From positions 1 to 44,597 of IMG/VR virus record IMGVR_UViG_3300029996_000048: a DNA stretch of 44,597 nucleotides. One strand, given 5' to 3'. The notes beneath the pieces were generated by a model. That model was given only the letters and a program-made list of their open reading frames with translations. It was not told the origin of the DNA and did no database searches. Positions within the stretch are counted from its first letter, which is position 1, and the number at the start of each line of letters is the position of its first letter. Below, piece after piece: positions 4,148 to 27,100 of the stretch. Origin of the DNA: a virus. Position numbers and translations under genes: made by a program.

Positions 4148-4199
4148 GATGAAATTCCTCCTGATTTTTGTTAAAATTTGAAGCTCTCTCTGAGCCTCC

Positions 4200-6227: not shown

Positions 6228-6228
6228 C

Positions 6229-7242: not shown

Positions 7243-8063
7243 GGCGCACCGCCTGCCAACACCGATTTGACGTGCCTCATGCGCTGATTTGCCTTGTCGC
7301 GTCTCATGCTATCGCCCTTGAATACCAGTGGCGTGCACATCTCGAGGATGCGGTCATAGATGCGCTGATAGGCCATGTCTTTCGGCCTGCACAGCTCGTC
7401 AAGCGTCAGGTTTGTGGTGACGATCAGCGGCTTCTTGGCCTTGTATCGCTCGTCAATGACCGTGTAAACCGTCTCCATTGCGTACTCACTGCTGCGCTCT
7501 GCGCCGAGATCATCGATTACCATCAGCGGGTAATAGTGCACCTGCTCGACGATTTCTTTCTTGTCGTATCCCGCGTTGAGGATTCGCGGGAAGCTCGTAA
7601 TCATCGCCGGGATCCCGCGGTCAATCAGCTCGTTGGCGATACACGCCGCCGCGAAGGTCTTCCCGTTGCCGGTGTTGCCCCACAGCAGAAGCCCATTGTT
7701 CTCGCGCCGCATATCGTCCCATGCGTCGGCATAGCGTTTGCATTTGACGATCTCGTCACTCATCGTCGCCTTGTCGAACCGGCACGCCGTCAGGCTCTTG
7801 TCGCGGATTCCGTCAGCACGCAGCGTTTCGATGCGTAGTCGCTTCTCACGGTCAGCGCGAGCTTTTTTCTCGGCCTCGTACTCTCGCGCCGCGCAAGCAC
7901 ACTGGCACCCGACAAGGCGGACATTCCCGCCGATGGGGATGCGGCACTGCTTCGGCGTGTTGCAATGGCCGCAGTACAGCAGCCCGTCTTTCTCGTAATC
8001 GACCAGATCACGAACAGGCTCGGCCTTTTTCGCGATGCTGTCGATCAATGCGTCAACGTTCAT
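7239..8063 (-). CDS. DnaC/IstB-like AAA+ helicase loader with N-terminal zinc ribbon
   Basis: Walker A GNTGNGKT and Walker B VIDDLGAE. N-terminal CGHC...CQC. Sits next to the replication organiser. Confidence 0.8.
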   Translation of the reverse strand: MNVDALIDSIAKKAEPVRDLVDYEKDGLLYCGHCNTPKQCRIPIGGNVRLVGCQCACAAREYEAEKKARADREKRLRIETLRADGIRDKSLTACRFDKATMSDEIVKCKRYADAWDDMRRENNGLLLWGNTGNGKTFAAACIANELIDRGIPAMITSFPRILNAGYDKKEIVEQVHYYPLMVIDDLGAERSSEYAMETVYTVIDERYKAKKPLIVTTNLTLDELCRPKDMAYQRIYDRILEMCTPLVFKGDSMRRDKANQRMRHVKSVLAGGAP

Positions 8064-8713
8064 AGGCTTCCCTCCGTGTTGCCGTAGTCGTAGTGATACC
8101 CTCTGCCGCTCTCGGGTAGCTCATCGTCCCACCGGCCTTGATTCAGCCATGTAGCGGGGTGTGGAATAAACTGCCCGTTGTTCTGCGTCCATTGGTCGCT
8201 GCACTTCTGCCGCTCCACTGCGGTCACAAGTGTTTCGAGTGGGACTTTGACCCGCTCGAAAGCTCTCTTAGCAGACTGTTTCCCGATTTTTCGCGGGTAA
8301 ACTGACCAAAAACGCTCGAATGCGTACCTCGTAGAGGGGGATTCAGAGGGTATATCGTTTTCTGTCTTATGTTCTTCGTCTTCTGTCTTATGTCTTATGT
8401 TATTAGTAGGCTTACATTTGCTTGCATTTGCTTGCGTTTGCTTACATTTGCTTGCATTTGCTTTTGGTGCTCTGCCGCCAGCCGCTCCATTCTGAGCCAG
8501 CGCATCAGATTTTTGAGCGTCACGGTCAACGACCGACTTAAATACCGGAAATAAAAGGGATTCTCTCCCGAGGTTGTCTGGAATTTCACCCGACCTGGCA
8601 TATTCTAAAATCGCAACAAACAGACGGCCTTTTTCGTCATCTTCCAGTGCTGCTGTTTGCTCGATCCAGTCGTAATATGCCTTTACATAGCACCTTGTAG
8701 ATGCAGCTCCCAT
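8060..8713 (-). CDS. replication organiser/initiator-like protein (DUF6291-like N-terminus plus FERFW...YPRK...ATWLNQGRWDDE C-terminus)
   Basis: Remembered phage replisome-organiser motifs at both ends. The low-complexity linker is encoded by iteron-like DNA. Confidence 0.6.
   Translation of the reverse strand: MGAASTRCYVKAYYDWIEQTAALEDDEKGRLFVAILEYARSGEIPDNLGRESLLFPVFKSVVDRDAQKSDALAQNGAAGGRAPKANASKCKQTQANASKCKPTNNIRHKTEDEEHKTENDIPSESPSTRYAFERFWSVYPRKIGKQSAKRAFERVKVPLETLVTAVERQKCSDQWTQNNGQFIPHPATWLNQGRWDDELPESGRGYHYDYGNTEGSL
8361..8463. repeat. iteron array, candidate origin of replication
   Basis: TGTCTTATG occurs 3 times (8363-8399), then five 10-bp units CTT(A/G)C(A/G)TTTG in phase at 8411-8460. 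cttacatttgcttgcatttgctt recurs with a 30-bp period. Confidence 0.55.
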
Positions 8714-8725
8714 ACCGCCACCGCC

Positions 8726-9136
8726 TTAAAACGGCAGCTCGCCGTCGTCCTCGCTGACCTCTGCAAAGCCGCCTGCGGCGCTCTCTGCGGCGTATTGCGG
8801 CGCGGTGGTATCATTCCCCTCCGAGCGCCTGTTGTCTGCGAAATACACGCTGTCAGCCTGCACCTCGTAGCTCCTGCGCTTGTTGCCGTTCTTGTCCGTC
8901 CAGTCGCGCATCTGCAAGCGCCCTTCGACGCCGATCATGCGACCTTTATCAGCGTAGTTGCAGAGCACTTCTGCCGTGCCGCGCCATGCGACAATGTCGA
9001 TCCAGTCTGTGCCGCCCTCCTTGCCGTTGCGGTCAACGGCAAGAGGGAACGACACAACGGATACGCCGCTGTTCGTCTTTTTCAGCTCCAAGTCACGCCC
9101 GATGCGTCCCATCAGGCACACGCGATTCATGCTCAC
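8726..9136 (-). CDS. ssb: single-stranded DNA-binding protein
   Basis: OB-fold N-terminus MNRVCLMGRIGRDLELK and acidic tail DDGELPF. Confidence 0.85.
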   Translation of the reverse strand: MSMNRVCLMGRIGRDLELKKTNSGVSVVSFPLAVDRNGKEGGTDWIDIVAWRGTAEVLCNYADKGRMIGVEGRLQMRDWTDKNGNKRRSYEVQADSVYFADNRRSEGNDTTAPQYAAESAAGGFAEVSEDDGELPF

Positions 9137-9993
9137 TGTGCGTCACCGTCGCTTTCGATGACCTCGCCGGTCGTCTCATCCACGGTGTAGTTGGCGTCAA
9201 TTGTTTCCTCTTCCTGCGCATCTGCGGCGATCACGTCGGCGAGTTGTTTTCCCGCGCCGCGCGTCTGGTAGTCGATGGACATAACACCCCATTTTCCAAT
9301 CAAAACGCGGTAGACAGTCTTGCGCGCCATAGCGTCCCAATCATCGCGCCAGCCCTTGCCCTGATATTCACCTTTTCGGAATTTCTTTTCATGTGCGGTG
9401 ATGGCCTTGACGCTCATGTAAACTGTCTTTTCGGCCCCATTGATAAGACGGTAATACCCGACGTATCCGATGACAGGAAGTGCCTCGCGCGCGTCCTCGT
9501 CCTCCACGAAATCAATGTCAACCTCTTCGGTCAGACGGTTGTAACTCTTCAATTCGCCCTCACGCACGTCCACGACGTTTATGGTCTTATATGCACCCGT
9601 GCGAAGTGCAAGCTGGTGCATACCTTTCCAGCCGAGAATGAATGTCGCTTCCATCTTTTTTGCGCCAATATCCTTCTTGTAGTTCTTGAATGGCGCAATG
9701 AAGGCATAGCCCAAACTCGGGTCGATGGGGAGATCAAACATCGCCGCTTTCAACGCGGACTGAATGACCGTCATCGGGGATTCATAAAAGGCTTGCTGCA
9801 AATTCTTGTCTGCATTGACCATCGAAACGATGGACGAAATAAACTGCGGCGCGCGCTTGCCAAGCAACTCGTCAAAGCGCTTGCGCATGCCGTCGCGGTC
9901 AAGCAGATCGTTCAACAACGCCATGACGGATACCTGCTTCTGCTGCGGTGCTTTTTGCATCGCCTGCGCGTTCTGAATCAATCCTTCCTTCAT
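9133..9993 (-). CDS. recT: RecT-family single-strand annealing recombinase
   Basis: RecT-like sequence, and position between the YqaJ exonuclease and SSB. Confidence 0.8.
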   Translation of the reverse strand: MKEGLIQNAQAMQKAPQQKQVSVMALLNDLLDRDGMRKRFDELLGKRAPQFISSIVSMVNADKNLQQAFYESPMTVIQSALKAAMFDLPIDPSLGYAFIAPFKNYKKDIGAKKMEATFILGWKGMHQLALRTGAYKTINVVDVREGELKSYNRLTEEVDIDFVEDEDAREALPVIGYVGYYRLINGAEKTVYMSVKAITAHEKKFRKGEYQGKGWRDDWDAMARKTVYRVLIGKWGVMSIDYQTRGAGKQLADVIAADAQEEETIDANYTVDETTGEVIESDGDAQ

Positions 9994-10976
9994 CTTTCTT
10001 TGTCCTCCTTCACCGCAAATTTGCGGAAATTTGTCGTTTTGTAGTAGCCGCTCAGATCCATTTCGGGGTGATCCTTTGCAAACGCCCTCGCGTCGAACGT
10101 CTGGCGGCTCTGCCCCTTCCAGTCGACCGTGAAGCGCCCGCAGTATCCGCGCTCATTGTCACCAAGGTCGTTCATGAGCTGCTGCTTGATGGCGTCCGCG
10201 CCCTTCTCGATGGCTTTCTTGCGGCTCATCAAGTACTGGTACTGCTCGACAAGCCTCTCGCGCCCGAACAGCTCAACTTCACCGCCGCCTCCCTCGTAGA
10301 TGGTCTCAAGCGCCTCGGTCGTGCTCGCATCACCGTCCATCGGCGGCGGGCTGTCAGCCTCCACGTAGTCGTGCCAGAAGTCCGCGGCGCAGCGTTTCAA
10401 CGCTGCAATCTCGTCGGGGCTGACATACACGCTGCTCTCGCACCATCCGGGAACATAGTCATCGGGGACGGTCGTGATCTGGTAGCAATAAAAGCCCTTG
10501 CCCAGCACCAGCGCCGCCAAGAACCAGCGTTCCCAGCCCGTTACGGCGAGATACGTCACGCACTGCGCATAGTAGCTCTCGGGGAAATCCCCACCCTCAT
10601 AGCGCTTGAGATTCAGCGCGCTTGCCGTCTTGCACTCAAGCCCGGAGCTTTCGCCAAGGATCTGCCGGTCGATGTTAGCGTGCAGATGAGGGCAGTCCTC
10701 GCGGCGCAGCAGGTAATTCATGCGGCGCACGCTCTTGCGGCTCGCCTCTTCAAAGCGGCTTGCCACATACGGCTCAAGGTCGCGCCCGACGCGCATCGCC
10801 TCGTTTTCCGGCTCTTCGCCGATCCTGCCGGTCTTCTCCGCCCATACCGTATAAGGCGAACGGTAGCGGTTTAGCCCCAGCACGGCGCCCATGTCGCTGC
10901 CGCCGAGGCTCTTCTTGCGCTCTTCAAGCCAGTCTTCGCGGCTCATCCCGAGCGTCGATATCTTCTGCATCTTCAT
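9990..10976 (-). CDS. YqaJ/lambda-Exo-like recombination exonuclease
   Basis: RSEDWLEERKKSLGGSDMGAVLGLNRYRSPYTVW is the YqaJ N-terminal signature. Paired with RecT. Confidence 0.8.
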   Translation of the reverse strand: MKMQKISTLGMSREDWLEERKKSLGGSDMGAVLGLNRYRSPYTVWAEKTGRIGEEPENEAMRVGRDLEPYVASRFEEASRKSVRRMNYLLRREDCPHLHANIDRQILGESSGLECKTASALNLKRYEGGDFPESYYAQCVTYLAVTGWERWFLAALVLGKGFYCYQITTVPDDYVPGWCESSVYVSPDEIAALKRCAADFWHDYVEADSPPPMDGDASTTEALETIYEGGGGEVELFGRERLVEQYQYLMSRKKAIEKGADAIKQQLMNDLGDNERGYCGRFTVDWKGQSRQTFDARAFAKDHPEMDLSGYYKTTNFRKFAVKEDKER

Positions 10977-15588: not shown

Positions 15589-16716
15589 ATGGCGAATTGC
15601 ATCAAATGTAAAGCAGCGCTGCCGGATGGCGCGCTGTTTTGTCCTATGTGCGGCAAAAAGCAAGCATCTGTCGACCGAAAAGCCACAAAGCGCGGCAACG
15701 GGACGGGGACGGTCTATAAGCGCGGCTCTTCATGGGTAGCAGAAATCACAAAAGGCTATCGTGAAGAGGACGGCAAGCTGACCCGTGTGAAAGCAAAAAA
15801 ATGCGGCTTCCGCACAAAACGAGAAGCCTTAGAATATATTCCTATGCTGCGGACGCAAAAGCCCCGTGAAAAGGATATCACTTGGCGCAAGGCATATGAG
15901 CTTTGGTTCCCAACGCATCGCGCCGACAAGTCCACGCTGAATTGCTACGCCGCTGCCGAAAAGTATTTTGCACCGATCGAATTTATGAAGCTGGCCGCGG
16001 TCGAGATTGATGACATTCAAGAATGCATTGATGACTGCCCGCGCGCCAAACAGACGAAAAAGAATATGCGCACCGTGTGCAGCCTGATCTACAAGTATGC
16101 CGTTCCGCGCGGATACGCCCCTATGAGTATGGCCCCATATCTCACCGTCACCGGCGAAAACGCCGCGCCGCGCGCGAGCTTTGATGCCGACCAGATCGAG
16201 AAGATAAAAGAGGCGTGCGGCGTGATTCCATACGCCGACTATATCTACTGCATGTGTTACCTCGGCTTCCGCCCTACAGAATTTCTCGGCCTGTCGATTG
16301 ATACCTACGACAAGAAAGAAAAGGTGCTTCGCGCTGGTATCAAGACCGAAGCGGGCAAGAATAGAACCGTCACGATATCACCCAAGATTCAGCCCATCAT
16401 AGACCGGCTGTCAAAAGATAAGATATCCGGCGCGCTATTCTGTAACGAAGAGGGGAAAGCGTTCAGGTATGACTATTTCCGCGACGAGGTTTTCTATCCC
16501 ACATTAAAGGCAATCGGCATCGACAATCCAATCGAAAACAAGCGGCACAAGTATTCCCCCCATACATGCCGTCATACGTTCGCAACGCTGATGAAAAACA
16601 TTCAGGCGTCGGACAAGGACAAGCTCGAACTGATCGGTCATGCAAGTCCTGAAATGCTGCGCTATTATCAGGATGTCAACCTGACAGACCTCCGAAAAAT
16701 CACAGATGCGATATAG
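15589..16716 (+). CDS. int: tyrosine integrase with N-terminal zinc ribbon
   Basis: CIKCKAALPDGALFCPMCG; C-terminal HTCRHTFATLM...LIGHASPEMLRYY (R-H-R-Y catalytic pattern). Adjacent to attP. Confidence 0.9.
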   Translation: MANCIKCKAALPDGALFCPMCGKKQASVDRKATKRGNGTGTVYKRGSSWVAEITKGYREEDGKLTRVKAKKCGFRTKREALEYIPMLRTQKPREKDITWRKAYELWFPTHRADKSTLNCYAAAEKYFAPIEFMKLAAVEIDDIQECIDDCPRAKQTKKNMRTVCSLIYKYAVPRGYAPMSMAPYLTVTGENAAPRASFDADQIEKIKEACGVIPYADYIYCMCYLGFRPTEFLGLSIDTYDKKEKVLRAGIKTEAGKNRTVTISPKIQPIIDRLSKDKISGALFCNEEGKAFRYDYFRDEVFYPTLKAIGIDNPIENKRHKYSPHTCRHTFATLMKNIQASDKDKLELIGHASPEMLRYYQDVNLTDLRKITDAI

Positions 16717-16743: not shown

Positions 16744-16801
16744 ATCGAGCGATTTTCCGTTGATATTCCGTCACTTTTCGGTGACTGGGGGTCAAGAGGC
16801 C

Positions 16802-16829
16802 GTGAGTTCAAGTCTCGCCACTCGGACCA
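16802..16829 (+). other. 3' fragment of a tRNA gene (T-arm, acceptor 3' strand, discriminator A, CCA) = probable attP core
   Basis: GTGAG-TTCAAGT-CTCGC, then CACTCGG-A-CCA at canonical spacing. No matching 5' acceptor strand (CCGAGTG) or anticodon arm upstream. Confidence 0.65.
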
Positions 16830-16834
16830 AGAAA

Positions 16835-16867
16835 AACCTCGAAACCGTTGTGGTTCCGAGGTTTTTT
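16835..16867 (+). terminator. rho-independent terminator downstream of the tRNA fragment
   Basis: AACCTCGAAACC-GTTGT-GGTTCCGAGGTT (11 of 12 pairs) followed by TTTTT. Confidence 0.6.
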
Positions 16868-16919
16868 CATATTTAGACTATTCTAGCAAATTCTCGATTA
16901 TGCCCAATATTTCTATCTT

Positions 16920-16940
16920 GTTACCCCCGCAGTTACCCTC
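16920..16940 (+). repeat. attP arm-type repeats GTTACCCCC / GTTACCCTC (P' arm)
   Basis: gttaccccc at 16920-16928 and gttaccctc at 16932-16940, same orientation as the P-arm copies. Confidence 0.5.
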
Positions 16941-16944
16941 GCAT

Positions 16945-16979
16945 AAAAGGCCTCTACCAATTGTGGGCAGAGGCCTTTT
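16945..16979. terminator. bidirectional hairpin terminator closing the accessory cassette
   Basis: AAAAGGCCTCT-13 nt-AGAGGCCTTTT, with A-run and T-run flanks. Confidence 0.7.
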
Positions 16980-17009
16980 GGCTAATAGTGCATCATTTTT
17001 TAGGATCGC

Positions 17010-17321
17010 TCATCCCTCGCGAAACATCCCTTGCATCGTCCGAACCTCGGCAGCTCTCTCGATCTGCTTCCTGTGCAGATAGTCATAGAGACACTTCATG
17101 CCCTCGGGCGGCTCGCCCTTCTCCTGCTTGTACTTCTGGATGACGCCAGCGACCTCGGCGTGGAGCATCGTCATGTGATGCATCTCTTCGCCGGAAAGCT
17201 CGTAAAACGTCTTCGCAAGAGCAGGGCATTCATCCTTGTATTCGAGGGCGCATTTCGCGTACTTCATCGCGTCCTCGATTTCCTCGTCGACCATCGCCGA
17301 CAGTTTTTCAATGAGTTTCAT
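17010..17321 (-). CDS. ferritin-like/four-helix-bundle-like small protein
   Basis: GAGGAAG RBS before the ATG at 17321 (the ORF is open to 17351). EIEDAMKY...ELSGEEMHHMTMLHAE resembles E...ExxH di-iron-type helices. Confidence 0.4.
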   Translation of the reverse strand: MKLIEKLSAMVDEEIEDAMKYAKCALEYKDECPALAKTFYELSGEEMHHMTMLHAEVAGVIQKYKQEKGEPPEGMKCLYDYLHRKQIERAAEVRTMQGMFREG

Positions 17322-17414
17322 TTTCTTCCTCGCTTTCTGCAGCTTCGACATTATTTATGGCATTAGCAAATAGCAGCAAAATTATCCCGAGCAGCAGAGC
17401 ATCTGAATCGTCGT

Positions 17415-17813
17415 TCACAGTTTTTCGACCGTGACCGCAAGGTTGTTGACGACCGATGCTACGCCGTCGAGCGCCAGCGACAGAAGAGAGCCGTCACAGC
17501 CGCAGGCGTTACGGATAATAGCTGTAATAGTGAGGTTTGCCACGCCGTTTGCTGCGACCGTCTGAGCTGCCGTAGCGCCGATGATGGCGACGCCGTCCTT
17601 CTGTGCGGTCAGGCTGACCGTACCGGCAGCCGTGGGTGCGACTGTCGCGCTGACATTGACAAGGTAATATCCCTGCCCACACAGTGTAATCGCGTTGCCG
17701 TCCTGACGGATGTTGCAGCCATAGCGGCGCGTCGTCGAGCCGACCGGCACGATGCCGCCGGCCGCAACGGTGGGATTGCTGACGTTGGTCGTGTAAATTG
17801 CAGACTTGCTCAT
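17415..17813 (-). CDS. BclA C-terminal-domain-like (C1q/TNF jelly-roll) protein without a collagen stalk
   Basis: 132 aa. The pattern GGIVPVG...GNAITLCGQGYYLVNVSATV...SLTAQKDGVAIIGA...LTITAIIRNAC...LAVTVEKL matches the BclA-CTD strand pattern as I remember it. TAGGAGGG RBS. Confidence 0.5.
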   Translation of the reverse strand: MSKSAIYTTNVSNPTVAAGGIVPVGSTTRRYGCNIRQDGNAITLCGQGYYLVNVSATVAPTAAGTVSLTAQKDGVAIIGATAAQTVAANGVANLTITAIIRNACGCDGSLLSLALDGVASVVNNLAVTVEKL

Positions 17814-17827
17814 ATTTTTACCCTCCT

Positions 17828-17866
17828 AAAAAATTAAAAAGCGGAGCAGCTGTTGCCGCCCCGCTT
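17828..17866 (-). terminator. rho-independent terminator/attenuator between cassette genes
   Basis: Minus RNA forms AGCGGGGCGG...CTGCTCCGCT (with G-U pairs) followed by TTTTTAATTTTTT. The RBS of the next gene follows immediately. Confidence 0.6.
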
Positions 17867-17884
17867 GCCTCGCCGAATAGGGCG

Positions 17885-18493
17885 TCAAATGTTGCCGTTT
17901 CCGCAACCGCAGCCACAGAACGGGGAGTTGCCCGCGCTGTAGGTGTAGCCGCTGGGATAGCGAACGACACCGCACATCTGCTCGCGCAGATAGAGTTGGT
18001 TGTTGGCCTGCTCAAGCTGTGCGATGCGGCCTTCGAGCTGGCTCTTTTCGAGCGCTGCGAATTTAGCGTCGATGTTGGCGTTGATGGCGTCAAGGCCGCG
18101 CTGCGTGGTGCAGCAGCAGTCTGCCATCTGGCGCTGGATGTCGTTGCCGGTCTGCATGATGGCCATGTTCGTGCCGTTCTGTGCGAGCGCGACCTCCTTG
18201 CCCAGCTGACCGATGCCGCCCTGCATCTCGTAGCCGAGATTGCAGATGCCGTTGCCGATGTTGGTCAAGCGGTCGTTCAGCTGGCCAAACTGCTGGCCGA
18301 AAAGGATCTCCTGCTGCGACGCAGCCGTGGCGTACTGGCCAAACTCGCCCTGGCGATTCCATCCGTTGCCGCCAAAGCCGAACATGAAGAGGAAGAGCAC
18401 GACAATGAGGAACCAACCGGAACCCCAGCCGTTCTCATCGTTCGCACCGCGGGTGACCGCGGCGATATCGCTGAGAGACATACCACTATCCAT
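17885..18493 (-). CDS. membrane protein with Q/N-rich coiled region and Cys clusters (unknown family)
   Basis: GGAAGGAG RBS. TM GWFLIVVLFLFMFGFGG, CCC at MADCCCTTQ, C-terminal CGCGCGNGNI. Confidence 0.6.
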   Translation of the reverse strand: MDSGMSLSDIAAVTRGANDENGWGSGWFLIVVLFLFMFGFGGNGWNRQGEFGQYATAASQQEILFGQQFGQLNDRLTNIGNGICNLGYEMQGGIGQLGKEVALAQNGTNMAIMQTGNDIQRQMADCCCTTQRGLDAINANIDAKFAALEKSQLEGRIAQLEQANNQLYLREQMCGVVRYPSGYTYSAGNSPFCGCGCGNGNI

Positions 18494-18545
18494 GTGTCAA
18501 AACTCCTTCCTGAAAGATTTTATAAATAAACCGTTGCGCACCGGC

Positions 18546-18761
18546 TTATTTCAGAAATTGCATGAACTCCTTTGCCTGCTCTTGGAGCTGCTGGAACTGA
18601 GCCTGAGACATCTGCCCGGACTGCAAAAGTCTTTCGACTTCCTGCTGCGCTTTCTGGGGCGTCACGCCTCGCGCAAACTTGCGAAATTCTCCCAACATCG
18701 CAAGAGGGTTATTTGGTCTTCTGCTGCTTCTCTGCAGCATCTGCATCATCGGATTTGGCAT
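18546..18761 (-). CDS. small Gln-rich protein
   Basis: GGAGG lies 9 nt before the ATG at 18761. 71 aa. Overlaps the 3' end of the upstream gene by 53 nt. Confidence 0.45.
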   Translation of the reverse strand: MPNPMMQMLQRSSRRPNNPLAMLGEFRKFARGVTPQKAQQEVERLLQSGQMSQAQFQQLQEQAKEFMQFLK

Positions 18762-19101
18762 TGAGTATTTCCTCCAATCTCTTCACGCGGTTTTCAAGAC
18801 TGTTGACGTCTACCGGCGCAGCCGCATGATACGGTGCGACTGTGTACGGCGTAACGGTGGCATACCCCGCACCGTCCGTTTGTTTGAGCCAGACAATGGG
18901 GTCGTTCTCATCCATCAGCAAAATAGAGCTGTTCGGAGCGAGCCTGAACGCCTCTGCGCCGTTTCTCCCGTTCACGCGGGTAATTTGACCCGCGAACGCC
19001 TGCATCGCTCCTGCGCCGTTCTGTGGGCCTGCAGGGGCATATCCACCGTAGGGGTTATACCCCATCGGCTGGGGCTGATAAGGATTGCCAAAGTATCCCA
19101 T
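18709..19101 (-). CDS. protein with P/Q/G/Y-rich N-terminus and globular core (unknown family)
   Basis: AAAGGAGGTG RBS before the ATG at 19101. MGYFGNPYQPQPMGYNPYGGYAPAGPQ...RVNGRNGAEAFRLAPNSSILLMDENDPIVWLKQTDGAGY... Confidence 0.6.
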   Translation of the reverse strand: MGYFGNPYQPQPMGYNPYGGYAPAGPQNGAGAMQAFAGQITRVNGRNGAEAFRLAPNSSILLMDENDPIVWLKQTDGAGYATVTPYTVAPYHAAAPVDVNSLENRVKRLEEILNAKSDDADAAEKQQKTK

Positions 19102-19130
19102 GCGCGCACCTCCTTTGTTGCTCTCATGGT

Positions 19131-19160
19131 ACAAAAAAACAGGCCCCCCAAAGTGCCTGT
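19131..19160 (-). terminator. terminator-like hairpin inside the leader of the accessory cassette
   Basis: Minus RNA forms ACAGGC-10 nt-GCCTGT followed by TTTTTTT, about 30 nt upstream of the cassette RBS. Confidence 0.5.
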
Positions 19161-19264
19161 AAAGTGTATGCAAAGTGCGTCGGAAAATGTCGAATGATTC
19201 TGCTTGCGTTTTTGCTCGAAAAATGGTATTTTGTGCTTACAGGTCGATCCTGGCCTGCCTTTTC

Positions 19265-19311
19265 ACAAAAAAGAAACGGCCCTTACCAAATGGAAAGGCC
19301 GTTTCTTTTTT
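19265..19311. terminator. strong bidirectional terminator ending the late/lysis transcription unit
   Basis: AAGAAACGGCC-15 nt-GGCCGTTTCTT (11-bp stem) with A-run and T-run flanks. Overlaps the stop of 19283..19543. Confidence 0.8.
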
Positions 19312-19543
19312 CATATAGTTCAGATGCAATTTTATGATACGCGCGGCGGCGGTATTTTTTCACCGCATCGACAGAGAGATTTCTTTCAAATGCAACTTGC
19401 ACACAACTCTTGCGCCGCACGTCGCACTCGATGATGCACGCCGCCTCGTCATCTGGTAACTCAAATGACAGGATATACGCCACGGCCCGCTTGGGAGCCA
19501 TAGAGGATAATTGCGCACGGATAGACCTGTGCTGACTGTTCAT
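19283..19543 (-). CDS. sigma-70 region-4-like / DUF1492-like small transcription factor
   Basis: ACIIECDVRRKSCVQVAFERNLSVDAVKKYRRRAYHKIASEL looks like a region-4 HTH. Start uncertain: ATG 19543 has no SD; the alternative is GTG 19618. Confidence 0.45.
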   Translation of the reverse strand: MNSQHRSIRAQLSSMAPKRAVAYILSFELPDDEAACIIECDVRRKSCVQVAFERNLSVDAVKKYRRRAYHKIASELYEKRNGLSIW

Positions 19544-19620: not shown

Positions 19621-20229
19621 TTATTTTGTCGCTCTCTGGATCATCGTCACGGCTTCCTGCCGCGTGATAAGCCCCTGCGGGGCGCTGCCGTCCGTGATGC
19701 CTGCTGCCTTTGCCGCCGCCCAGTCCTTCGCTGCCCACGTGGAGACGGGTTTGGTGCGCAGCTGCGTAAGGTAAGTATCCATCATCTTGTTAAACGTTGC
19801 CTGATCCATGTACTCCTCCATTTCTGGCGGATACTTCCCCGCCAAGATCATGCTCCCTGTGTGTTTGAGGTGGTTGTCCCACTGGAAATGCGGGCGGTCG
19901 GGGAATTTCTTCCAGTCGCCCCCCCACGAAAAGCCGACCTGCTTGCCGATCTGCCCGCAGCGGGCGAAAAACGTCGGATCGTCGTACTCATGCCCCTTGA
20001 CGTTTTTGCAGATATCGAACGCCAAACCCGCCTTGACGCCGTGGAACGTCGGGCGCGTCGCGGTCTTTGCCGCGTAGCCGTTCGAGGCAAGATAGCGCTG
20101 GTACTCGTCATCTCGTACTGTCTCGGTCACAAGCACCGGAAGTCCCGCCTCCTTGCAGAGGTCGAGGAAAATGACGCAGTTTGCACGCACGTCCGCCCGC
20201 AGGTCAGCAATGTCCCTACTGTGATACAT
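19621..20229 (-). CDS. endolysin: M15/VanY-type peptidase with C-terminal SLH-like module
   Basis: FHGVKAGLAFD and WGGDWKKFPDRPHFQW (M15_4-like motifs). C-terminal WAAKDWAAAKAAGITDGSAPQGLITRQEAVTMIQR resembles one SLH repeat. Confidence 0.8.
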   Translation of the reverse strand: MYHSRDIADLRADVRANCVIFLDLCKEAGLPVLVTETVRDDEYQRYLASNGYAAKTATRPTFHGVKAGLAFDICKNVKGHEYDDPTFFARCGQIGKQVGFSWGGDWKKFPDRPHFQWDNHLKHTGSMILAGKYPPEMEEYMDQATFNKMMDTYLTQLRTKPVSTWAAKDWAAAKAAGITDGSAPQGLITRQEAVTMIQRATK

Positions 20230-20461
20230 CGCTGTCACCCTTGCCGTCCTCGTCCTTGCTTTTGTTGTAGCTGGACGTCGACACACCGATGAGCGCGCCG
20301 ATAAACAGCGCCACAGCACTGATGGTGGTCGTCACCTGCTCGGTGTAGCCCCAACCCCACACGCCCGCGAGGGCGGCGTACAGGCCGCTGCACGCGGGCA
20401 GTACGATGAGCACGAGCCACTTGAGCACATCGTACACCTTGTTACTCATTTCAAACTTCAT
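20216..20461 (-). CDS. holin (phi LC3/LL-H-like)
   Basis: AAAGGAGAAGG RBS. MKFEMSNKVYDVLKWLVLIVLPACSGLYAALAGVWGW..., two TM segments, immediately upstream of the endolysin. Confidence 0.7.
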   Translation of the reverse strand: MKFEMSNKVYDVLKWLVLIVLPACSGLYAALAGVWGWGYTEQVTTTISAVALFIGALIGVSTSSYNKSKDEDGKGDSDVSQ

Positions 20462-21109: not shown

Positions 21110-24100
21110 TTACGCCGCTTTCTTCCTCATGATTGCAAGCTGCTCGTCCACCCGCGCGCGGTTCCAATGGCGAATGCTCTTTCCGACGCCGAAGTCCTCA
21201 AAGAGGGCTGCACGCTGTTTATCGGAAAGCCCCTTCTGCTGATAAACAAGCTCCATGATCTGCAAGCCTTCACTGTTGCTGATGGTGTCACCGTTTTTGT
21301 CCTTCAGGCTTTTGATCCCGCCTTTCGCCAGATAGAGCGCAATATACTGGGCTTCTGAAACGCCCGTTTTTTTGACGGTATCTATGGCCTTTGCCGCCCA
21401 CCCGTCCGTTTGGTAATTGCTCACGCTCATTTTCCCAACGATGTTGGCATATTCGTAGGCTTTCGCAACGGCATCTGCCTTATCGCCGTCGCTCATGGAC
21501 TTATAGCTCGCAAGTCCCGTGAGCTCGCTGACGATCTTATAGGAAGTCTGCCCGCGCTTTGTGGCGTACTTGACGTATTCCTCGCCGGTCAACTGTTTGT
21601 TTTCCTTATTCACGGTAAAAGATTTCGGTGCGCGCTGCGGCAGGACTTTGGTTTCACCGGTCGCCTCATACAGGCGGCTCAATTCATCTTCCATTTTGCT
21701 GCCGCTTACCTTCGAGGTATACGCGGGATTCGCAAAATTGTTAAATGCCCGCGCGACCACGCCTCCGGAGTTTTCCGTGCGCCCCCATGCGTCGATAAAG
21801 GGAATCTGCCCGTAGTCAACGCCCGGAATACGCGCGCTGGCCTTGCCGAGCGCATATTGCATATCCGGCGTCAGGAATTTGTTCTTATCCGTATAGGTCG
21901 TCATGCGCTCGCTTTCGCCCGTGCGCTCCGCCTGCCCGAAGACCGTCGGGATACCCTGCGTCAAATAACTCGTCGCCGCGCTTGCTACCGCACTGGTTAG
22001 TGCGTTTGTGTCCCCGGAGGACGCATACCCCACCGCGTCAAAAACGTCGTTCAGGCTTTGCAGACAGCTCATGGAAAGAAGCGGGTCCGTCACGTTGCTT
22101 GCTGCCTGAAGCATATCACTCATAGTGAGATACCCGTTGTTCGCCTGCATTTGCTCGTAAAGGTTTGCCCCGACGAAAAACGGAAGCGCTTCCGGCGCAA
22201 GCCAATCCAGCGTAATACTCGTGCCATTTGGCAGCTCCATCGCATATTCCTGATGCCCTTGCAGCTCGTCGAACTTTTTCTTCTTCTCGTCATCACCGCC
22301 GCTGCCGCGAAGAATGCCCTCTTTCGCCATATAAAGGCCGAGCATCATCAGCCCCGTGCCGGTCAGACCGGCGGCGGCACGGTCGATCATTTCGGTCGCC
22401 TGCATATTACCCTTCTGCACCTGCACAAGGTCATAGCTTATGCTTTTGAGGAAACCAATAGGGCTGTATTCCACGCCGCGCACCAGAATGTTGGCTGGTG
22501 TCTTGCGGAACGGCAGGATTCCTTCGGCGAGGGTGCTTCCGAGGCGTTTCATCTTGTTATCCCCGCGGTATCTGCCGAGATCGGAGATCATCTGTGAAAA
22601 CGCATTGGTGTCTCGATAGGTTGCTTTCTGCGCCTCTCTGATCGCGTATTCGCGTGCCGCTTCAATGCCTTTCCCGCCAGCGACCTGCTCCGCGGTAATG
22701 CCATTTGCTTTGCAGAATTGCGCCAGCGCCGCCGCGTAATGCGGCTTGGAGAACCATGCGTCTTCCGCATCCAGCGCCGTGCTGTTAGATTTGCGCATCG
22801 CTTCCAGCAGCTTTGGTTTGAAGATCGTGCGCCCTTCCTCGATTTCCTGTCGCACATTGACATTATCATTGTACTTGCCGCTGCCGAGAGCCTGCTCGCG
22901 AATGTTGGCATAGTCACTCCATGCCGCCTTGATAAGCCCTGCGTCCTTCGTCGTCAGGATTGCCTTCGTGCGTCCGACTTTGCCGCCGCTCACCGCGTTC
23001 GCAGCGCTCTCAATGCCTGCGCCGATGACGTTCTTTACCGTGACAGCAGGAACAAATCCTACGTTGCCAACGATGTTGCGCACATGCGTGCGTGGATTAC
23101 CAAGCATCGAAAAGTAGCGCCAAGCGTTCCATTTGTCAATGAAGCGGCTCGGCATCTGTCTGCCGATATCGCGATAGATTTCCTTCATCGCCTCGGTGCG
23201 CGCATCGTCGTCCTTTGCGTTCAGGAACTTCTCAGCGAGGTCGCGGTCAATCTTCAGATCAGGGGCCTTTTCCCCGTACTGCTTTTTGAGATCTTCTGTC
23301 AAGTTCTCCACGCTGCGCTGCGCCGCATAAAGCTGCGTACCGGGGTCCTGCTGCTTGAGCAGCCGCGTTGCCTGCAACGCCTGTGCCGCATTTCTCTGGC
23401 GCTTTACGATGGTGTCGAGCACATCGATAGCTGTCTCCACATCACCGCTGTTTGCTGCATTGTTGTAGAGCGCCCAGCCAATCGCCGTATTCTCCTTGCT
23501 GATTCCCTCTTTGGTGGAATTTTTCCATTTATTCAAGGTCTTTTGCCAGCCTTCGGTTTTGATGCGGCTTTCTGCGTCACTGATGGCCTGCTTGTCCGTA
23601 TAGCGGTCGTAGGAGAAATCTCCTTTTGCCACCATTCGTTCCAACGTCGGCACCATTGCGTCCGGCGTTGCCTTTGCTTCCAGCACCGTGCGGATCGTGC
23701 GGCTGACGTATTTGTCGTCCGCCGTTTTCTTCGGCACTTGTACCTCTCGGTACGCGCGCTCGCCCGCAGGGATATATCCGTACTTCTCTTTCAACGCTTC
23801 ATAGTTCGCCTCGGGGATCTCACGGGAGAATGCCGCATCATTCACGCTGTTGACTTTTGCTAAACGGTCCGCCTCATCTCCGGCGATATATTCCACCGTG
23901 TTGACCCCGGCATCCTGCAATGCGGCTTTCAGCCGCTCGCTGCTATTGTCTGGGATAACGGCGGCAAGGACTTCATCGAAGCCAACGGCACGCTGGGGCT
24001 TTGCCTCAAAGTAGCCCGTAGGGATTTCCAGGGCCGCCTTAAAGATGCCTTGGATGTCCTGCGCTGTCTTGCTGCTGATTTTATACCCGTCAGCGGCAAA

Positions 24101-27100
24101 GCTCTTGATGATAGCATCCACGGTCTTTTTCCCGCCCGCAGCGTTCTTTAAGGCCGTGGCAGCATAGTCGTAGTCCATTGTGCCGCCGGTTTTCTTAACG
24201 ATTTTCCCCAGCACATTGTTGATGGCCTCGTCCACCAGCTTTACCTTTGCGTCGTATTCACTTCCTTCCTCAAGGCCCAGCCGCCCGCTGTCCGACTTGA
24301 TGTCCTGGATGCTTTTGTAGCTCGGTGTTGCAAGAGCCTGGATGCCGGTAGCCGAAACACCCCAGAAGCCTTGTCCGCGTTCGCTCTGCGCATCCCGCAT
24401 CGCCTTGACGATATTCTCCAAAGTGTAGGCATAGTGGAGCTGCCCCCATGCACGCCTGTTCCCGTTGCGGTCGATGACCTCCTTGCCGTTGTAAAGGCCC
24501 TTTCGGCCCTCTACGCCGTCAAAAAGGTTGTGCAACCACGCCTCGTACTTTGCGGGGTCAACCGCTTCACGGATAGCCTTGTGCGTTGCTTCCGCGTCAA
24601 ATTCCATCCGGCGGGTCTCCGGCCCGTTCGCCAGGTAGTTCCTTGCGCGGACCAGCTCTGGCATCAGCTTCTTGGCGGGCAGGGCCTCGCTCTCAATGCC
24701 GTGTTCAGCCAGATAGCTGCTGTACGCGGCCTCCAGTTCTGCGCCGTGTGCCTCTACCCAGCGTTTTCGCGCCAGCATGGGGCTTTCGCCACCGACCGGG
24801 CGCATCTCCCCGATGACATCCTCCCCCAGCCTTTGGATAAGGTGGTCATACAGCTTTATTTTTTCATCATCCAACCGCGTCACGGTCTCCGTGTTGATGT
24901 TTTGCACCATGTTCTGGCCACTGTCTGCCAAGAACAGATTCATCATCTGGGCATCATCTTTGTGTCGCTCCAGCAGCCCGGCCTCGCCGCCGTTGCTGTT
25001 CAATGCGTCCTCCAGCTCGTTGGCATAATTGTAGAGGGGGCGGGCATTGTCGTAGCCGACGCGTTTCACCAGCTCGTAGTATTTGCTCCGCAGTCGTTTC
25101 TCCGCGTCGCTGTTCACCTCGTATTCCAGGCGTGGAGAAGTCGGCGTCCAGGCGTCCCCGCCGTAAACCTTGTTCCGGCTGTCCGCCTGCGGGTCGATGG
25201 TGGCCTTGTTGAACACCAGGGAGATGGGGCCGTACTTGGAATGGCCCTCGCTGGCCTTGACCACCGCAATAGAGGGCATGGGTAATCCGCCCAGCTTCAG
25301 CGCGGACATGATGCTGGACTCATCCTTGTTGTGGACGGCGATCAGCTTGTCAGTCTCTTCGACCGGCGTTTCCATGCTGAACTTCAGCTTGACATTTTGT
25401 ACGCCACGAGATAGACTATCTACAGAAGCATCCCCCCGCAGAGCGCCGCTGTTCGCAGCGGAAGAGCCGTCAATTTGGGGGATGCTTCTTTCTTGCATCT
25501 GCCCAATATTATAGATCATCTTACCGTCTGCACTCTGCGCTGTCGAGATTGTGATCTTGTAATACTTCCCATCAAAATCTTTGAAAAACGCCGTGCGATA
25601 ATTCCACCCGCGACTTGCCATGCCCCCATGGCGGCTGTTATGATCTACAACGTTTCTATCCCCCTTGACAGAAATCTGCGCCAACTCGTCAATATGCGAT
25701 GCTGCATTTACTTTTCGCTCAAATACCGCCTCGCTCATAGTACGCCCATCGCTGGTGTGGTTGTCGCTCAGTTTCCCTGCCGAGGTCGCAGTCAGGGCCA
25801 ATTCGTCGCCATCCGCGCCGATAAGCTTAACGTCTTGTCCACGGCGGATTTTTCCGTTAATATAGTCTTCCAGCTGTTCGCTCCAACTCTGCGGGTCATT
25901 TCCAAAAATGACCTGTCTGTCGGCGCGGACATATTTTTTGCCATCGGCAGCCTCTTCAATGCTCGCCCTGCCATTTATTTTGCTTGGCGGCGCACGCGTG
26001 CTTTCCTGCGCAACGGTTTCACTCTCCACCTTGATATGTGCAAGAAGGAATGCTGCCGCATCGCTGATCTCGCTGTCAGCGAAAATGTTCATATCGCCGA
26101 GGCTATCACAAACGATCTCTTCCCAGATTTCCTGCGCCGTCATTTCGGTGCCGGCATAAGCATCTTCATACGCCGTGCAGAGGGAGTCGACCTCACCGCT
26201 GGTAAAGGTCTTATCGATGCGCGTGCGTACCTCGTTCAAATCGACTTCGCCCTTTGCGATCATATCATGTCCGGCCTCATGCCGCATGATCTGGTACGAC
26301 GTAAATTCCGGATGATCCGCACGGATAAATACGCGGTCACCTGAAACGTAGCCGCGCACCTGGAACGCTTTCCCGCTCTTGTCACGGAACGTCAGATTAT
26401 TCCCGGCAAAAAACGTCACGCGCAGACCGCGCTCTTTGGCGAGGTCCTTCGCCTTGCGCATTTCCGCCGTCTCGTTCTTCACAAGATAGACGCTGTCATT
26501 GACCGCGCCTCTGCCGATGCCGAAGCTCGCAGTGCTTACTTTTTCTCCATAATCGAGCGCAGCTGCTTCGCTGTCTGCGAAGTGTCTCCCTTTCTTCCGG
26601 CTCTGATCTCGTCCTGTGCTTTCTTCCACGCCTCGTACTTCTCCGCGGGGATTCGCACCGTTATCCCGTTCGCTGCCTTCGCGTAAATGTACTGCTTCTC
26701 CATGTTCGGCTCCTTCCTGCTGCGCGTATTCTGCGCGCAGCTCGTCCATTGTCACCTCTCCTGTCTCGAGGGCAAGGCGGTTGTCAGTTACATACTTGTC
26801 AAAGCCGGTCGCCTGCGCCTCTGCGCCTGCGATCTGCTGCTTTGCTGCAATATAATCCGTATTGGGGGAAACCGCCGTTCCATCAACAGCAGTGTACCCA
26901 TTCGTCAGCATGTCGTCAAGAACGATCTCGAGCGTTTTCGCCGCTTTGACGTTCTCCTGCCCGTTATCGTTGATGATGCGCTGCGCTGCATCAATGATTT
27001 GCGTGCGCGTCAGACCCTCGTCCATCGCCTTGCGCATGGCGGGGGTCTCGAATATCTGATTGCTTCGCTGGTATCCGTTTGCTGTCCGCTGCCGTGCACC

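Follow-up and report, generated by a model that had tools for sequence, protein, structure and literature searches.

An uncharacterised gene module of gut phages beside a phage attachment site

The segment next to attP, furnished with its own terminators, is the textbook site of lysogenic-conversion genes, and phage morons such as the toxin or immune-evasion genes of Staphylococcus and Streptococcus prophages lie in regions of this kind, between the lysis genes and attP. Other described systems resemble the locus considered here one protein at a time: the C-terminal domain of BclA, from the exosporium nap of Bacillus anthracis (1wck, 2z5w); the stand-alone helix-turn-helix (HTH) proteins of the LuxR type, GerE among them, or of the sigma-70 region-4 type; bacterioferritin and Dps, together with the encapsulated half-ferritins; and the i-spanin Rz, in which an N-terminal transmembrane (TM) segment precedes a coiled coil with conserved cysteines. 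No described system matched the gene set as a whole in profile, PHROG, PADLOC or structure searches, in agreement with an earlier reading of the sequence alone. For the core proteins no Pfam family, solved relative or literature record was found, nor any known family, defence system or solved structure that would explain them.

The window analysed here, a stretch of 44,597 nucleotides (positions 1 to 44,597 of IMG/VR virus record IMGVR_UViG_3300029996_000048), carries beside its attP a minus-strand unit that the sequence-only reading had described as five genes set apart by terminators. All five open reading frames (ORFs) were recovered with the coordinates and sequence peculiarities given for them, including a 53-nt overlap of q71 with the upstream pqg130, and the unit does adjoin attP as a separately insulated block between bracketing terminators. 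The count of five does not hold, because a sixth gene, encoding a small HTH protein, belongs to the unit. From the regulator onwards, the genes are:

19283..19543, minus strand: sig86, a stand-alone small HTH protein of 86 aa, of GerE/LuxR or sigma-70 region-4 type; the sixth, regulatory gene of the module
18709..19101, minus strand: pqg130, an ORF of 130 aa from ATG, its head beginning MGYFGNPYQPQP
18546..18761, minus strand: q71, an ORF for a small Gln/Met-rich helical protein of 71 aa
17885..18493, minus strand: tm202, 202 aa, the anchor gene of the module
17415..17813, minus strand: bcl132, 132 aa, a stand-alone BclA C-terminal-domain-like (C1q/TNF-type jelly-roll) protein
17010..17351, minus strand: fer113, 113 aa, a short ferritin-like (half-ferritin) helical protein

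Values of dN/dS between 0.08 and 0.18 across the six genes (0.08 for sig86, 0.085 for tm202, 0.09 for q71) indicate purifying selection, so these ORFs are not chance. The elements that bound and subdivide the cassette are:

19262..19312, minus strand: strong intrinsic terminator directly after sig86 (fold -27.5 kcal/mol, z = -7.0, then U6)
19150..19177, minus strand: three CACTTT direct repeats (11-nt period), located 49-76 nt before the start of pqg130
19124..19160, minus strand: weak hairpin, T7 run and -10-like TGTACCAT before pqg130, with the RBS AAAGGAGG next
17828..17872, minus strand: internal intrinsic terminator between tm202 and bcl132 (-22 kcal/mol, z = -4.7)
16940..16992, minus strand: terminator-like hairpin closing the cassette after fer113 (-24.8 kcal/mol, z = -5.3)
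16826..16872, no strand assigned: second hairpin after fer113, flanked by an A-run and a T-run (-21.2 kcal/mol, z = -5.6)
16782..16829, plus strand: attP core, the 3' 48 nt of tRNA-Pro(GGG)

The hairpin 3' of sig86 is the one previously described as the late-operon terminator, and the internal terminator was also returned by a pattern scan (12-bp stem, 8 GC pairs, T-rich tail). The leader of the unit holds, in addition, the repeat array and a further hairpin with a promoter-like element, both absent from the earlier account. The CACTTT array is unique in the window (0/100 shuffles match), and arrays of this type lie upstream of pqg homologues in 22 other loci, including the distant L122, L136, L139 and L154; the repeats are likely candidates for the binding sites of sig86. 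The order hairpin, T-run, TGTAYCAT/TATAAT-like element and RBS is kept in close and distant loci, and in the window, where the hairpin folds at -11.2 kcal/mol (z = -1.9), it resembles a composite terminator and promoter ahead of pqg130, which suggests that transcription would restart here. The -10-like TGTACCAT is poor, and no -35 was found upstream of pqg130 in the window. At the far end, the hairpin at 16826-16872, between the cassette and attP/int, is possibly bidirectional.

Co-occurrence of the genes, on which the sequence-only reading had let its cluster stand or fall, shows a conserved unit and not a chance neighbourhood. The order sig86, pqg130, q71, tm202, bcl132, fer113 is retained in 80 close IMG/VR loci, and in such loci the cassette stays while integrase, lysin and holins are replaced. 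A wider synteny set comprised 79 loci from genomes of different GTDB species, with denominators of 60-76 per test. Among these the TM gene is preceded by a Q/P/Y-headed pqg homologue in 67/70 loci, a small q71-type gene is present in 64/70 and an HTH gene in 43/60, and downstream of the TM gene 72 of 76 loci encode either a BclA-C-like protein or the alternative b139 beta protein. The module accordingly runs from HTH gene to Q/P/Y-headed protein, small Q-rich protein, single-TM coiled-coil CCC/CGCGC protein and variable slots, which in the window hold the BclA-C-like jelly-roll and the half-ferritin. Between phages these downstream slots are filled by non-homologous genes, the BclA-like and ferritin-like ones being the least conserved parts of the module, so that the cassette as a whole need not work by one shared mechanism. 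The five genes and their regulator gene are thus one copy of an uncharacterised gene module that recurs in thousands of gut phages.

Temperate phages or prophages with an integrase just downstream make up most of the carriers, and database names place the carriers among sipho-, myo-, podo- and crAss-type genomes. Prophages of Collinsella (on a 289-kb contig), Slackia and Atopobium-type high-GC genomes (GC 61-67%) contain the module or its core. The full module is found in the cultured Clostridium perfringens phage CPD1 and in the Butyrivibrio phage Ceridwen, which has no annotated integrase and for which its describers observed the lytic cycle alone. In the crAss-like cr116_1 a member of phrog_16490 (E = 1.8e-50) follows holin and endolysin and is accompanied by an HTH gene. 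A homologue of tm202 in the T1-like Hanrivervirus aligns on the CCC region (hhalign 89%), and the TM family is probably present in T1-like coliphages, the E. coli T1-like phages of the BASEL collection carrying a probable homologue of the anchor gene; it possibly extends to archaeal/methanogen viruses.

The anchor protein tm202 shows the features first described for it, here a single hydrophobic segment (about residues 26-42), a CCC triplet (residues 126-128) and a Cys-rich C-terminus, FCGCGCGNGNI. An acidic N-terminal tail with a SLSDIAAVT motif leads into a Gly-flanked TM helix, after which a helix of about 107 residues bearing CCCxTQR is followed by the tail GVVRYP...PFCGCGCG; the AF2 model is one long helix. 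The protein matches phrog_16490 (E = 1.5e-15), and its family comprises 4193 clusters at 90% identity and 600 at 50% identity. The TM segment is present in 76 of 88 family representatives, and most members contain a very hydrophobic stretch of 17 residues (median Kyte-Doolittle 2.0). Across the family the N-tail is acidic, and K/R residues are commoner behind the TM segment than ahead of it (37 sequences vs 5), a charge distribution that favours an N-out/C-in orientation with a cytoplasmic C-terminal domain; as a positive-inside signal this is weak (about one charge per flank), and the opposite topology is possible. The family profile has weak, non-significant matches to tetherin and influenza C HEF2 (E = 0.04-0.07), and in architecture only tm202 shares with tetherin, class I viral fusion subunits and the i-spanin Rz an N-terminal hydrophobic segment followed by a long cysteine-bearing coiled coil.

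Upstream of the anchor gene, pqg130 encodes a disordered P/Q/G/Y-rich head (residues 1-36), a small beta-alpha-beta-beta-beta core (40-90; AF2 pLDDT about 95) and a C-terminal helix. The core found no fold match in the PDB, and the BFVD matches of the protein are uncharacterised gut-phage proteins only. Significant matches connect pqg130 to phrog_21718 (E = 1.7e-7) and q71 to phrog_22984 (E = 9.5e-11), families that, like the phrog_16490 of tm202, are labelled 'unknown function'.

The best Pfam match of the window's sig86 is Sigma70_r4_2 (E = 3e-4, 20.7 bits vs a cut-off of 25.7), and 15/27 members of its family match Sigma70_r4 and 4/27 match GerE. Against the PDB, the family profile has the character of a GerE/LuxR-type HTH domain of about 70 aa, with GerE (1fse, E = 3e-9) as its best natural match and SdiA, NarL and others also matched. 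A sigma-70 factor was considered and set aside: the 86-aa protein covers region 4 only (residues 28-69), and because sigma region 2 is absent it is not a sigma factor. It resembles GerE and the stand-alone LuxR-type or sigma-70 region-4 HTHs in size (about 70-86 aa) and fold-level sequence and, like GerE-type HTHs, adjoins an operon presumably under its control; unlike the case of GerE, nothing points to sigma-K or sporulation, and the match to GerE is of the generic LuxR-type HTH kind. In 133 of 163 loci a sig86 homologue precedes the module, and the HTH families are homologous between loci (hhalign 97-99.8%), whereas in crAss-like phages the equivalent position is taken by an excisionase/MerR-type HTH.

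The two variable slots are filled in the window by proteins with more familiar relatives. For bcl132 the claimed likeness to the BclA C-terminal domain stands at profile level. The protein matches Pfam PF18573 below the curated cut-off (E = 1.6e-4, 22 bits vs 38), 11 of 30 relatives match it at E <= 1e-3, and some close homologues (83-87% identical) carry PF18573 or bear the name BclA C-terminal domain protein. The family profile is similar to solved BclA structures over the whole domain (positions 16-132), its PDB matches being BclA chains only (2z5w, 2r6q, 3twi, 1wck; E = 6e-4 to 3e-3). The TNF/C1q-type jelly-roll of BclA is therefore expected in bcl132, which has a CGC motif; it differs from BclA in being phage-encoded, in always adjoining the tm202 gene and in lacking a signal peptide, the collagen stalk and the exosporium-targeting region. 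As a candidate for a full BclA-type exosporium protein it was rejected, since the domain starts directly, with no GXX repeats and no N-terminal targeting region. The bcl132 family is found downstream of the TM gene in 48 of 76 loci, and in about a third of modules an unrelated beta protein takes its place.

The description of fer113 as a ferritin-like four-helix protein holds in part, for the first helix pair. Residues E24, Y31, E56 and H59 are invariant in 10 diverse members and align with bacterioferritin/Dps ligands, giving the di-iron pattern of E ... ExxH plus Tyr on a helix pair (E-x6-Y ... E-x2-H), and in a profile comparison the family aligns with helices A-B of bacterioferritin/Dps (E about 2e-4 to 1e-3); the match to Rubrerythrin (E = 7e-3, 17.1 bits) is below the cut-off of 22.8. 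At 113 aa, with the second helix pair and second metal half-site of ferritins not detected, the protein is nearer a half-ferritin than a full four-helix protein. It resembles encapsulated half-ferritins in size, but has no encapsulin partner beside it. Its family occurs in a minority of modules only, and in most others the slot holds unrelated helical, low-complexity proteins.

With a probability of roughly 0.4, the region is best read as a copy of a widespread, self-contained accessory operon for a complex on the inner face of the membrane, and not as a spore-coat or exosporium cassette; the regulation, topology, assembly and target process that go with this reading we infer as follows. The sig86 HTH protein would be encoded at the tail of the late/lysis operon, the strong terminator after its gene would insulate the cassette, and transcription would restart from the cassette's own promoter-like element, preceded by the three CACTTT repeats one helical turn apart. 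If these repeats are bound by sig86, as is likely, the operon would be self-regulated, yielding pqg130, q71 and tm202, and bcl132 and fer113 by passage through a leaky internal terminator. The tm202 protein would sit in the cytoplasmic membrane, its short acidic N-tail facing out and its coiled-coil stalk, about 16 nm long, reaching into the cell, where the CCC ring and the C-terminal CxCxC tail could form thiol/metal clusters or cross-links. Its partners without signal peptides (pqg130, q71, a trimeric jelly-roll bcl132 and a di-iron half-ferritin fer113) would assemble on it at the inner membrane face. The step on which such a complex might act, during infection or after induction, would be linked to the envelope, for example phage exclusion or the timing of lysis and release, and the complex would not decorate the cell or spore surface. 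The label of surface-type proteins is weakened, as four of the five proteins lack a signal peptide and the charge bias of tm202 favours a cytoplasmic C-terminal domain. The Cys-rich tails, the C1q-like head and the long stalk could, however, belong to an extracellular or virion fibre as well.

The alternative that survives best, though it is unlikely, is a cassette for lysogenic conversion or superinfection exclusion, transcribed from a prophage-state promoter, in which the tm202 stalk would project outside, capped by bcl132, and alter the surface or block competitors. The attP itself is real: the window shares its sequence exactly with the integrated relative L013 as far as the attP block, beyond which the two diverge, and in L013 the tRNA-Pro(GGG) is intact beside the cassette (7664-7739). 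Many provirus contigs end at the attP block, which also matches the first 38 nt of the Faecalibacterium phage FP_Toutatis. The block lies 180 nt past the last cassette gene, so position, terminators on both sides and a predicted promoter element at the prophage end are those of a moron, transcribed, as it appears, apart from the late operon; the TM protein with its Cys-rich motifs and the mostly temperate carriers also fit. The resemblance ends there, for the cassette has six to seven genes, a dedicated regulator and a phage-like composition (its GC equals that of the remaining phage), and it is near-universal in its lineage: among integrase-anchored relatives with enough downstream sequence, all but the more distant L219 and L222 retain it. 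A moron confined to temperate phages and patchy among close relatives was accordingly rejected as a description. What the sequence-only reading had called the classic position for lysogenic conversion thus keeps its position and terminators, and is weakened as to function by the full module in Ceridwen, which has no annotated integrase, and by the TM family in virulent crAss-like and, probably, T1-like lineages. The missing signal peptides of four partners and the charge bias towards a cytoplasmic stalk further oppose an outward-facing device. A search of PADLOC-DB did not place the cassette in a defence system, returning a weak coiled-coil match of tm202 to ZorA (E = 0.002, 14.5 bits) and no match for the other nine proteins tested.

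Distinctly less probable is a virion fibre, in which tm202 would form a trimeric coiled-coil shaft, bcl132 or its alternative beta protein the knob, and pqg130 and q71 adaptors or chaperones, mounted on head or tail. A coiled-coil stalk encoded beside a TNF/C1q-type knob gene does resemble known fibres, and the collagen-like protein encoded in the window lacks a knob. The module also follows an SPP1 gp7-like minor capsid gene, within the head module, in L082 and four further loci, and in T1-like phages the tm202 homologue follows lateral tail fibre genes. Crossing sipho-, myo-, podo- and crAss-type genomes, however, the module has no common docking site for a fibre, and in some genomes it lies among early or recombination genes. 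A shaft would also have to accommodate the very hydrophobic segment of most tm202 members, and a fibre gene set an HTH gene, terminator and promoter-like element of its own. The crAss-like homologues annotated 'spike protein/viral fiber' owe these names to annotation transfer from coiled-coil similarity, and the weak fold matches of the pqg130 core to tailspike N-terminal domains (E about 0.5) are not significant.

More improbable again is a lysis accessory, a membrane protein and partners that, by analogy with antiholins or spanins, might tune holin triggering or aid breach of the envelope. The module lies directly after holin and endolysin in the window and in many Firmicutes and crAss-like loci, and the N-terminal TM segment and cysteine-bearing coiled coil of tm202 recall Rz. 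It is not always beside lysis genes, however, and where it is, these are freely exchanged while the cassette stays. A two-component Rz/Rz1 spanin was rejected: inspection of the sequences revealed no lipoprotein partner, the partners having neither signal peptide nor lipobox, the charge bias predicts a cytoplasmic coiled coil, and most hosts have no outer membrane.

Remodelling of the spore coat or exosporium, in which a GerE-like regulator would act within the mother cell and the spore would be coated with Cys-rich, low-complexity and BclA-like products, is a tempting and probably wrong annotation that is now removed, being highly improbable despite the BclA-C-like bcl132, the GerE match, signal peptides missing as in coat proteins, some spore-forming hosts, C. 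perfringens phages among the carriers and a GerA gene flanking one locus, because carriers of the module or its TM core include phages that seem not to integrate and phages of the non-spore-forming Collinsella, Slackia, Atopobium-type hosts, Butyrivibrio, Bacteroidales and E. coli, while the GerE match is generic and the BclA-like and ferritin-like genes are the least conserved.

A wider form of the inner-membrane reading, possible but doubtful, is that the tm202-centred module is an unrecognised machine of gut tailed viruses across host phyla (Firmicutes, Actinobacteria, Bacteroidota through crAss-like phages, Proteobacteria through T1-like phages and possibly the hosts of methanogen viruses), serving an infection step for which most of these viruses have no described machinery. 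Such a machine would be built around a membrane-anchored coiled coil, clustered by metal or disulfides, and would have exchangeable partners and its own transcription switch, perhaps to control release or exclusion at the membrane. The function of the module is open to direct testing, because Ceridwen and CPD1, which carry it in full, and the BASEL T1-like phages, with their probable anchor homologue, are in culture. In phages that differ widely in host and life style, the tm202 family keeps its fixed neighbours and dedicated regulator, and the module is common in human, animal and rumen gut viromes, crAss-like phages included, where it represents 'viral dark matter' of sizeable extent and defined architecture.

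The window represents the genome of a temperate, siphovirus-type phage whose host belongs to the gut Clostridia; the related contigs are IMG/VR viral genomes of 40-44 kb, and the nearest named relative of a cassette protein is from Neglectibacter timonensis. All five ORFs of the accessory cassette that the sequence-only reading had placed between the late genes and attP were found as described, and a sixth gene, sig86, lies directly upstream of the terminator assigned there to the late operon. The cassette is thus bigger, and also far more general, than had been stated.

44.6 kb to 19.6 kb, minus strand: late genes, ending in two holin-like ORFs and an M15-type endolysin
19621-20319, minus strand: the M15-type endolysin
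19283-19543, minus strand: sig86, the sixth cassette gene, a small HTH protein
19262-19312: terminator hairpin (-27.5 kcal/mol, z = -7)
19150-19177, minus strand: three CACTTT direct repeats with an 11-nt period, in the leader between sig86 and pqg130
18709-19101, minus strand: pqg130, the protein with the P/Q/G/Y-rich head
18546-18761, minus strand: q71, a small Q-rich protein, overlapping pqg130 by 53 nt
17885-18493, minus strand: tm202, the single-TM coiled-coil protein with a CCC triplet
17828-17872: internal terminator hairpin (-22 kcal/mol, z = -4.7)
17415-17813, minus strand: bcl132, the BclA-C-like jelly-roll protein
17010-17351, minus strand: fer113, the ferritin-like protein
16940-16992 and 16826-16872: two more hairpins
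16782-16829, plus strand: attP core, 48 nt, the 3' end of tRNA-Pro(GGG)
15589-16716, plus strand: tyrosine integrase
12.5 kb to 1, minus strand: early genes

The proposed attachment site is borne out by comparison with an integrated relative (L013), which is identical to the window up to the 48-nt block and divergent beyond it, and which runs on into an intact tRNA-Pro gene (7664-7739) about 180 nt past the cassette end. The block is also the end point of many provirus contigs; the partial tRNA-Pro copy in the window receives no ARAGORN call. The integrase itself carries an N-terminal zinc-ribbon (CxxC...CxxC) before its arm-binding and catalytic domains. Folding energies of -27.5 and -22 kcal/mol uphold the two terminators that had been read from the sequence. 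Purifying selection acts on all six genes (median dN/dS 0.08-0.18), and for tm202 synonymous divergence is present even between copies that encode an identical protein.

The order sig86, pqg130, q71, tm202, bcl132, fer113 is preserved in 80 close IMG/VR relatives, and it survives in close relatives with a different integrase (26-32% identity) and with replaced lysin and holins. Conversely, when relatives were chosen by their integrase, all but two of those with enough downstream sequence (L219 and L222) carried the cassette. Beyond this lineage, 80 loci, each from the genome of a different GTDB species, were retrieved through the CCCxTQR motif of the TM protein with a narrow tm202-family alignment, and module genes were counted in them with iterative HMMs, one per gene. 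Among the 70 loci with enough flank, a pqg130 homologue stands directly upstream of the TM gene in 67 and a small Q/M/N-rich gene is found in 64; in 43 of 60 loci the upstream 3 kb include a homologue of the HTH gene. That the genes form a conserved cluster is borne out by the retained order in the close relatives and by the position of the pqg130 homologue in the GTDB loci.

Later positions in the module are filled more freely. Directly downstream of the TM gene is either a BclA-C-like protein (48) or a beta protein, b139 (24), together 72 of 76 GTDB loci, and two further slots follow. The first of these, slot 6, holds a helical or low-complexity protein, which may be fer113, X216, X335 or a member of the DUF7841 family, for which no paper was found; the last is often occupied by a protein of about 120 aa, with an HExxH motif in some families (DUF2268/PolyVal-like). 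Comparison by hhalign detected no homology between bcl132 and b139, or between fer113 and X216, c3 (another downstream-slot family) or X335, which leaves unsupported the idea that one protein has diverged into all the slot variants. Among the window's own relatives, exchange also reaches slots 2 and 3 in one sub-lineage (L175 at 8387-10054, L189, L191-193, L196, L200, L202, L203, L205, L212 and L215), where window-type integrase, HTH, BclA-like and ferritin-like genes accompany unrelated proteins of 143 and 114 aa and a shorter TM protein (187 aa) that retains the CCC triplet and the CGC tail. The invariant core of the module is thus the HTH gene, a pqg-type gene, a small protein and the TM/CCC protein, with bcl132 and fer113 as exchangeable parts.

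The module is usually found behind the endolysin gene, in at least 15 loci and with lysins of many types. In five loci it follows an SPP1 gp7-like minor capsid gene, and in one of these, L082, the scaffold and major capsid genes lie on its other side. Downstream neighbours are recombinases, cI-type repressors or host genes. Carrier loci range from 29% to 68% GC, with assigned hosts in Oscillospiraceae, Lachnospiraceae and Christensenellaceae, as well as Collinsella (a 289-kb contig), Slackia and Atopobium-type genomes. Two cultured phages, Butyrivibrio phage Ceridwen and Clostridium perfringens phage CPD1, harbour the full module. The Ceridwen genome has no annotated integrase, and its describers observed lytic growth only and consider the phage virulent (PMC7372960); CPD1 is not counted as a virulent carrier, because its record annotates an 'integrase'. 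Within the Ceridwen module, a 287-aa ORF (6088-6951) is situated between the BclA-like and X216-like genes; by eye, its product resembles a protein of the HNH/homing-endonuclease type.

The TM family ranges more widely than the full module. It includes a protein of the crAss-like phage cr116_1 (phrog_16490, E = 2e-50), whose gene is preceded by a holin, an endolysin and an HTH gene and followed by a CGC-containing beta protein, and a further member occurs in a cultured Bacteroides uniformis phage. In T1-like Hanrivervirus coliphages the lateral tail fibre genes are followed by a probable homologue, which scores 89% in hhalign over the CCC region, and weaker matches (tblastn E = 1e-6 to 1e-8) come from Methanomassiliicoccales-associated viruses. 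Next after the T1-like homologue in Escherichia phage aaroes (L166), gene 75 (3922-4245) specifies a 107-aa protein with a His/Asp-rich stretch, HDRDYDRDHEHD, which, like the ferritin-like and Cys-rich parts elsewhere, may point to metal binding.

The product of sig86 is an 86-aa stand-alone HTH protein. In a diverse set of 27 family members, Sigma70_r4 is matched by 15 and GerE by four, and among natural proteins in the PDB the family profile scores best with GerE (1fse, E = 3e-9). Since sigma region 2 is absent, sig86 is not a sigma factor but a small DNA-binding regulator. A candidate operator for it, and a likely one judging from sequence, is the CACTTT array in the leader, which occurs nowhere else in the 44.6-kb window and is absent from shuffles; a degenerate fourth copy possibly lies at about 19183-19190. 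Similar arrays are found upstream of pqg130 homologues in 22 other loci, four of them distant (L122, L136, L139 and L154), where the array is flanked by the HTH gene and by a promoter-like pair, TTGAAG...GATAAT. Just downstream of the array in the window, a weak hairpin and its T7 run are joined to TGTACCAT, after which comes the RBS; the -10-like element here is poor. Many distant loci have a terminator hairpin after the HTH gene with its T-run merging into a TATAAT-like hexamer, and the leader is predicted to be a terminator-insulated promoter under HTH control. The leaders of L089, L094 and L095 contain a second conserved hairpin and T-run, AGCGTATGC...GCATACGCGTTTTT, immediately 5' of the RBS of the pqg130-type gene, which suggests attenuation-type control in that subgroup. 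An Rfam scan of leader and cassette returned no RNA family.

The TM protein, tm202, belongs to phrog_16490 (unknown function), and its family falls into 4193 clusters when grouped at 90% identity, or about 600 at 50%. From N to C terminus, the conserved features are an acidic tail with SLSDIAAVT, a very hydrophobic segment flanked by Gly, a long N/Q/G-rich helix with CCCxTQRxID, and a tail of the form GVVRYP...PFCxCGCG. An AlphaFold2 model built with 60 diverse sequences has a TM helix at 27-39 and a single continuous helix at 68-174; as one long helix with low pTM, it is unsuited to fold search. Across 76 representatives the N-tail is acidic, with 3.3 D+E against 0.6 K+R, and K/R residues are commoner after the TM segment than before it in 37 sequences, with the reverse in five, a charge distribution that weakly favours an N-out/C-in topology.

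In pqg130 a disordered Q/P/Y head precedes a core that AlphaFold2 predicts with confidence as beta-alpha-beta-beta-beta (pLDDT about 95), and a helix closes the protein at its C-terminus. Foldseek found no relative of the core in the PDB (best E = 0.5), its matches in BFVD are uncharacterised gut-phage proteins only, and PDB profile searches with the tm202 and pqg130 families gave no significant match. By sequence, bcl132 counts as a distant member of the family of BclA C-terminal domains, and it has neither stalk nor signal peptide. The fer113 protein retains E-x6-Y ... E-x2-H and aligns with the A-B helix pair of bacterioferritin/Dps (E about 2e-4 to 1e-3). For a protein of 113 aa, half-ferritin is the better term; a role as encapsulin cargo in the phage capsid was dropped, as no support was found and fer113 occurs in a minority of modules only. 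On inspection, no N-terminal hydrophobic signal was seen in pqg130, q71, bcl132 or fer113. Scans of the cassette proteins and their distant homologues against Pfam, NCBIfam, PHROGs and PADLOC yielded only weak BclA_C, Rubrerythrin and Sigma70_r4 matches and PHROGs of 'unknown function', the sole catalogue entries of the core families, and PADLOC, Rfam and NCBIfam assigned nothing noteworthy to the cassette. For the core proteins we found no Pfam family, solved relative, defence-system match or paper, and the module as an entity appears to be undescribed.

Our favoured reading, to which we give a probability of about 0.4, is that the module is a self-regulated operon whose products, during infection, come together at the cytoplasmic side of the membrane, on a thiol-rich coiled coil anchored in it. 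As to the process affected, exclusion or control of lysis and release are our most plausible guesses. Lysogenic conversion could still apply to temperate carriers, but in its classic form it is weakened, because a phage that lacks lysogeny functions keeps the full module, the TM core is present in virulent lineages, and the cassette is nearly universal within the window's lineage. A virion fibre, with the coiled coil as shaft and the jelly-roll as knob, is possible, yet it is hard to reconcile with the strongly hydrophobic segment, a dedicated regulator and the spread of the module over unrelated virion types. Of the sequence-only reading, the structural description and the notion of a conserved, separately transcribed cassette stand. 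The proposed spore or exosporium role is at odds with the host range, and the two 'spore-like' genes are conserved less than any other part of the module. For a connection to endospore-appendage (ENA) systems, through Cys-rich connectors and BclA-like tips, we found no shared families, and the host range again speaks against it.

Elsewhere in the window, a 650-aa collagen-like protein (35508-37460, minus strand) consists of several Gly-X-Y blocks with repeated globular inserts between them, one 17-residue insert sequence occurring twice, and has a short non-collagen C-terminus lacking a BclA-type knob; local GC is 70%. The tRNA-Arg(GCG) that ARAGORN calls inside this gene on the opposite strand (35656-35724, plus strand) is probably a false positive. 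The tail region includes an ORF of 2563 aa (21110-28801, minus strand), unusually big for a 44.6-kb phage.
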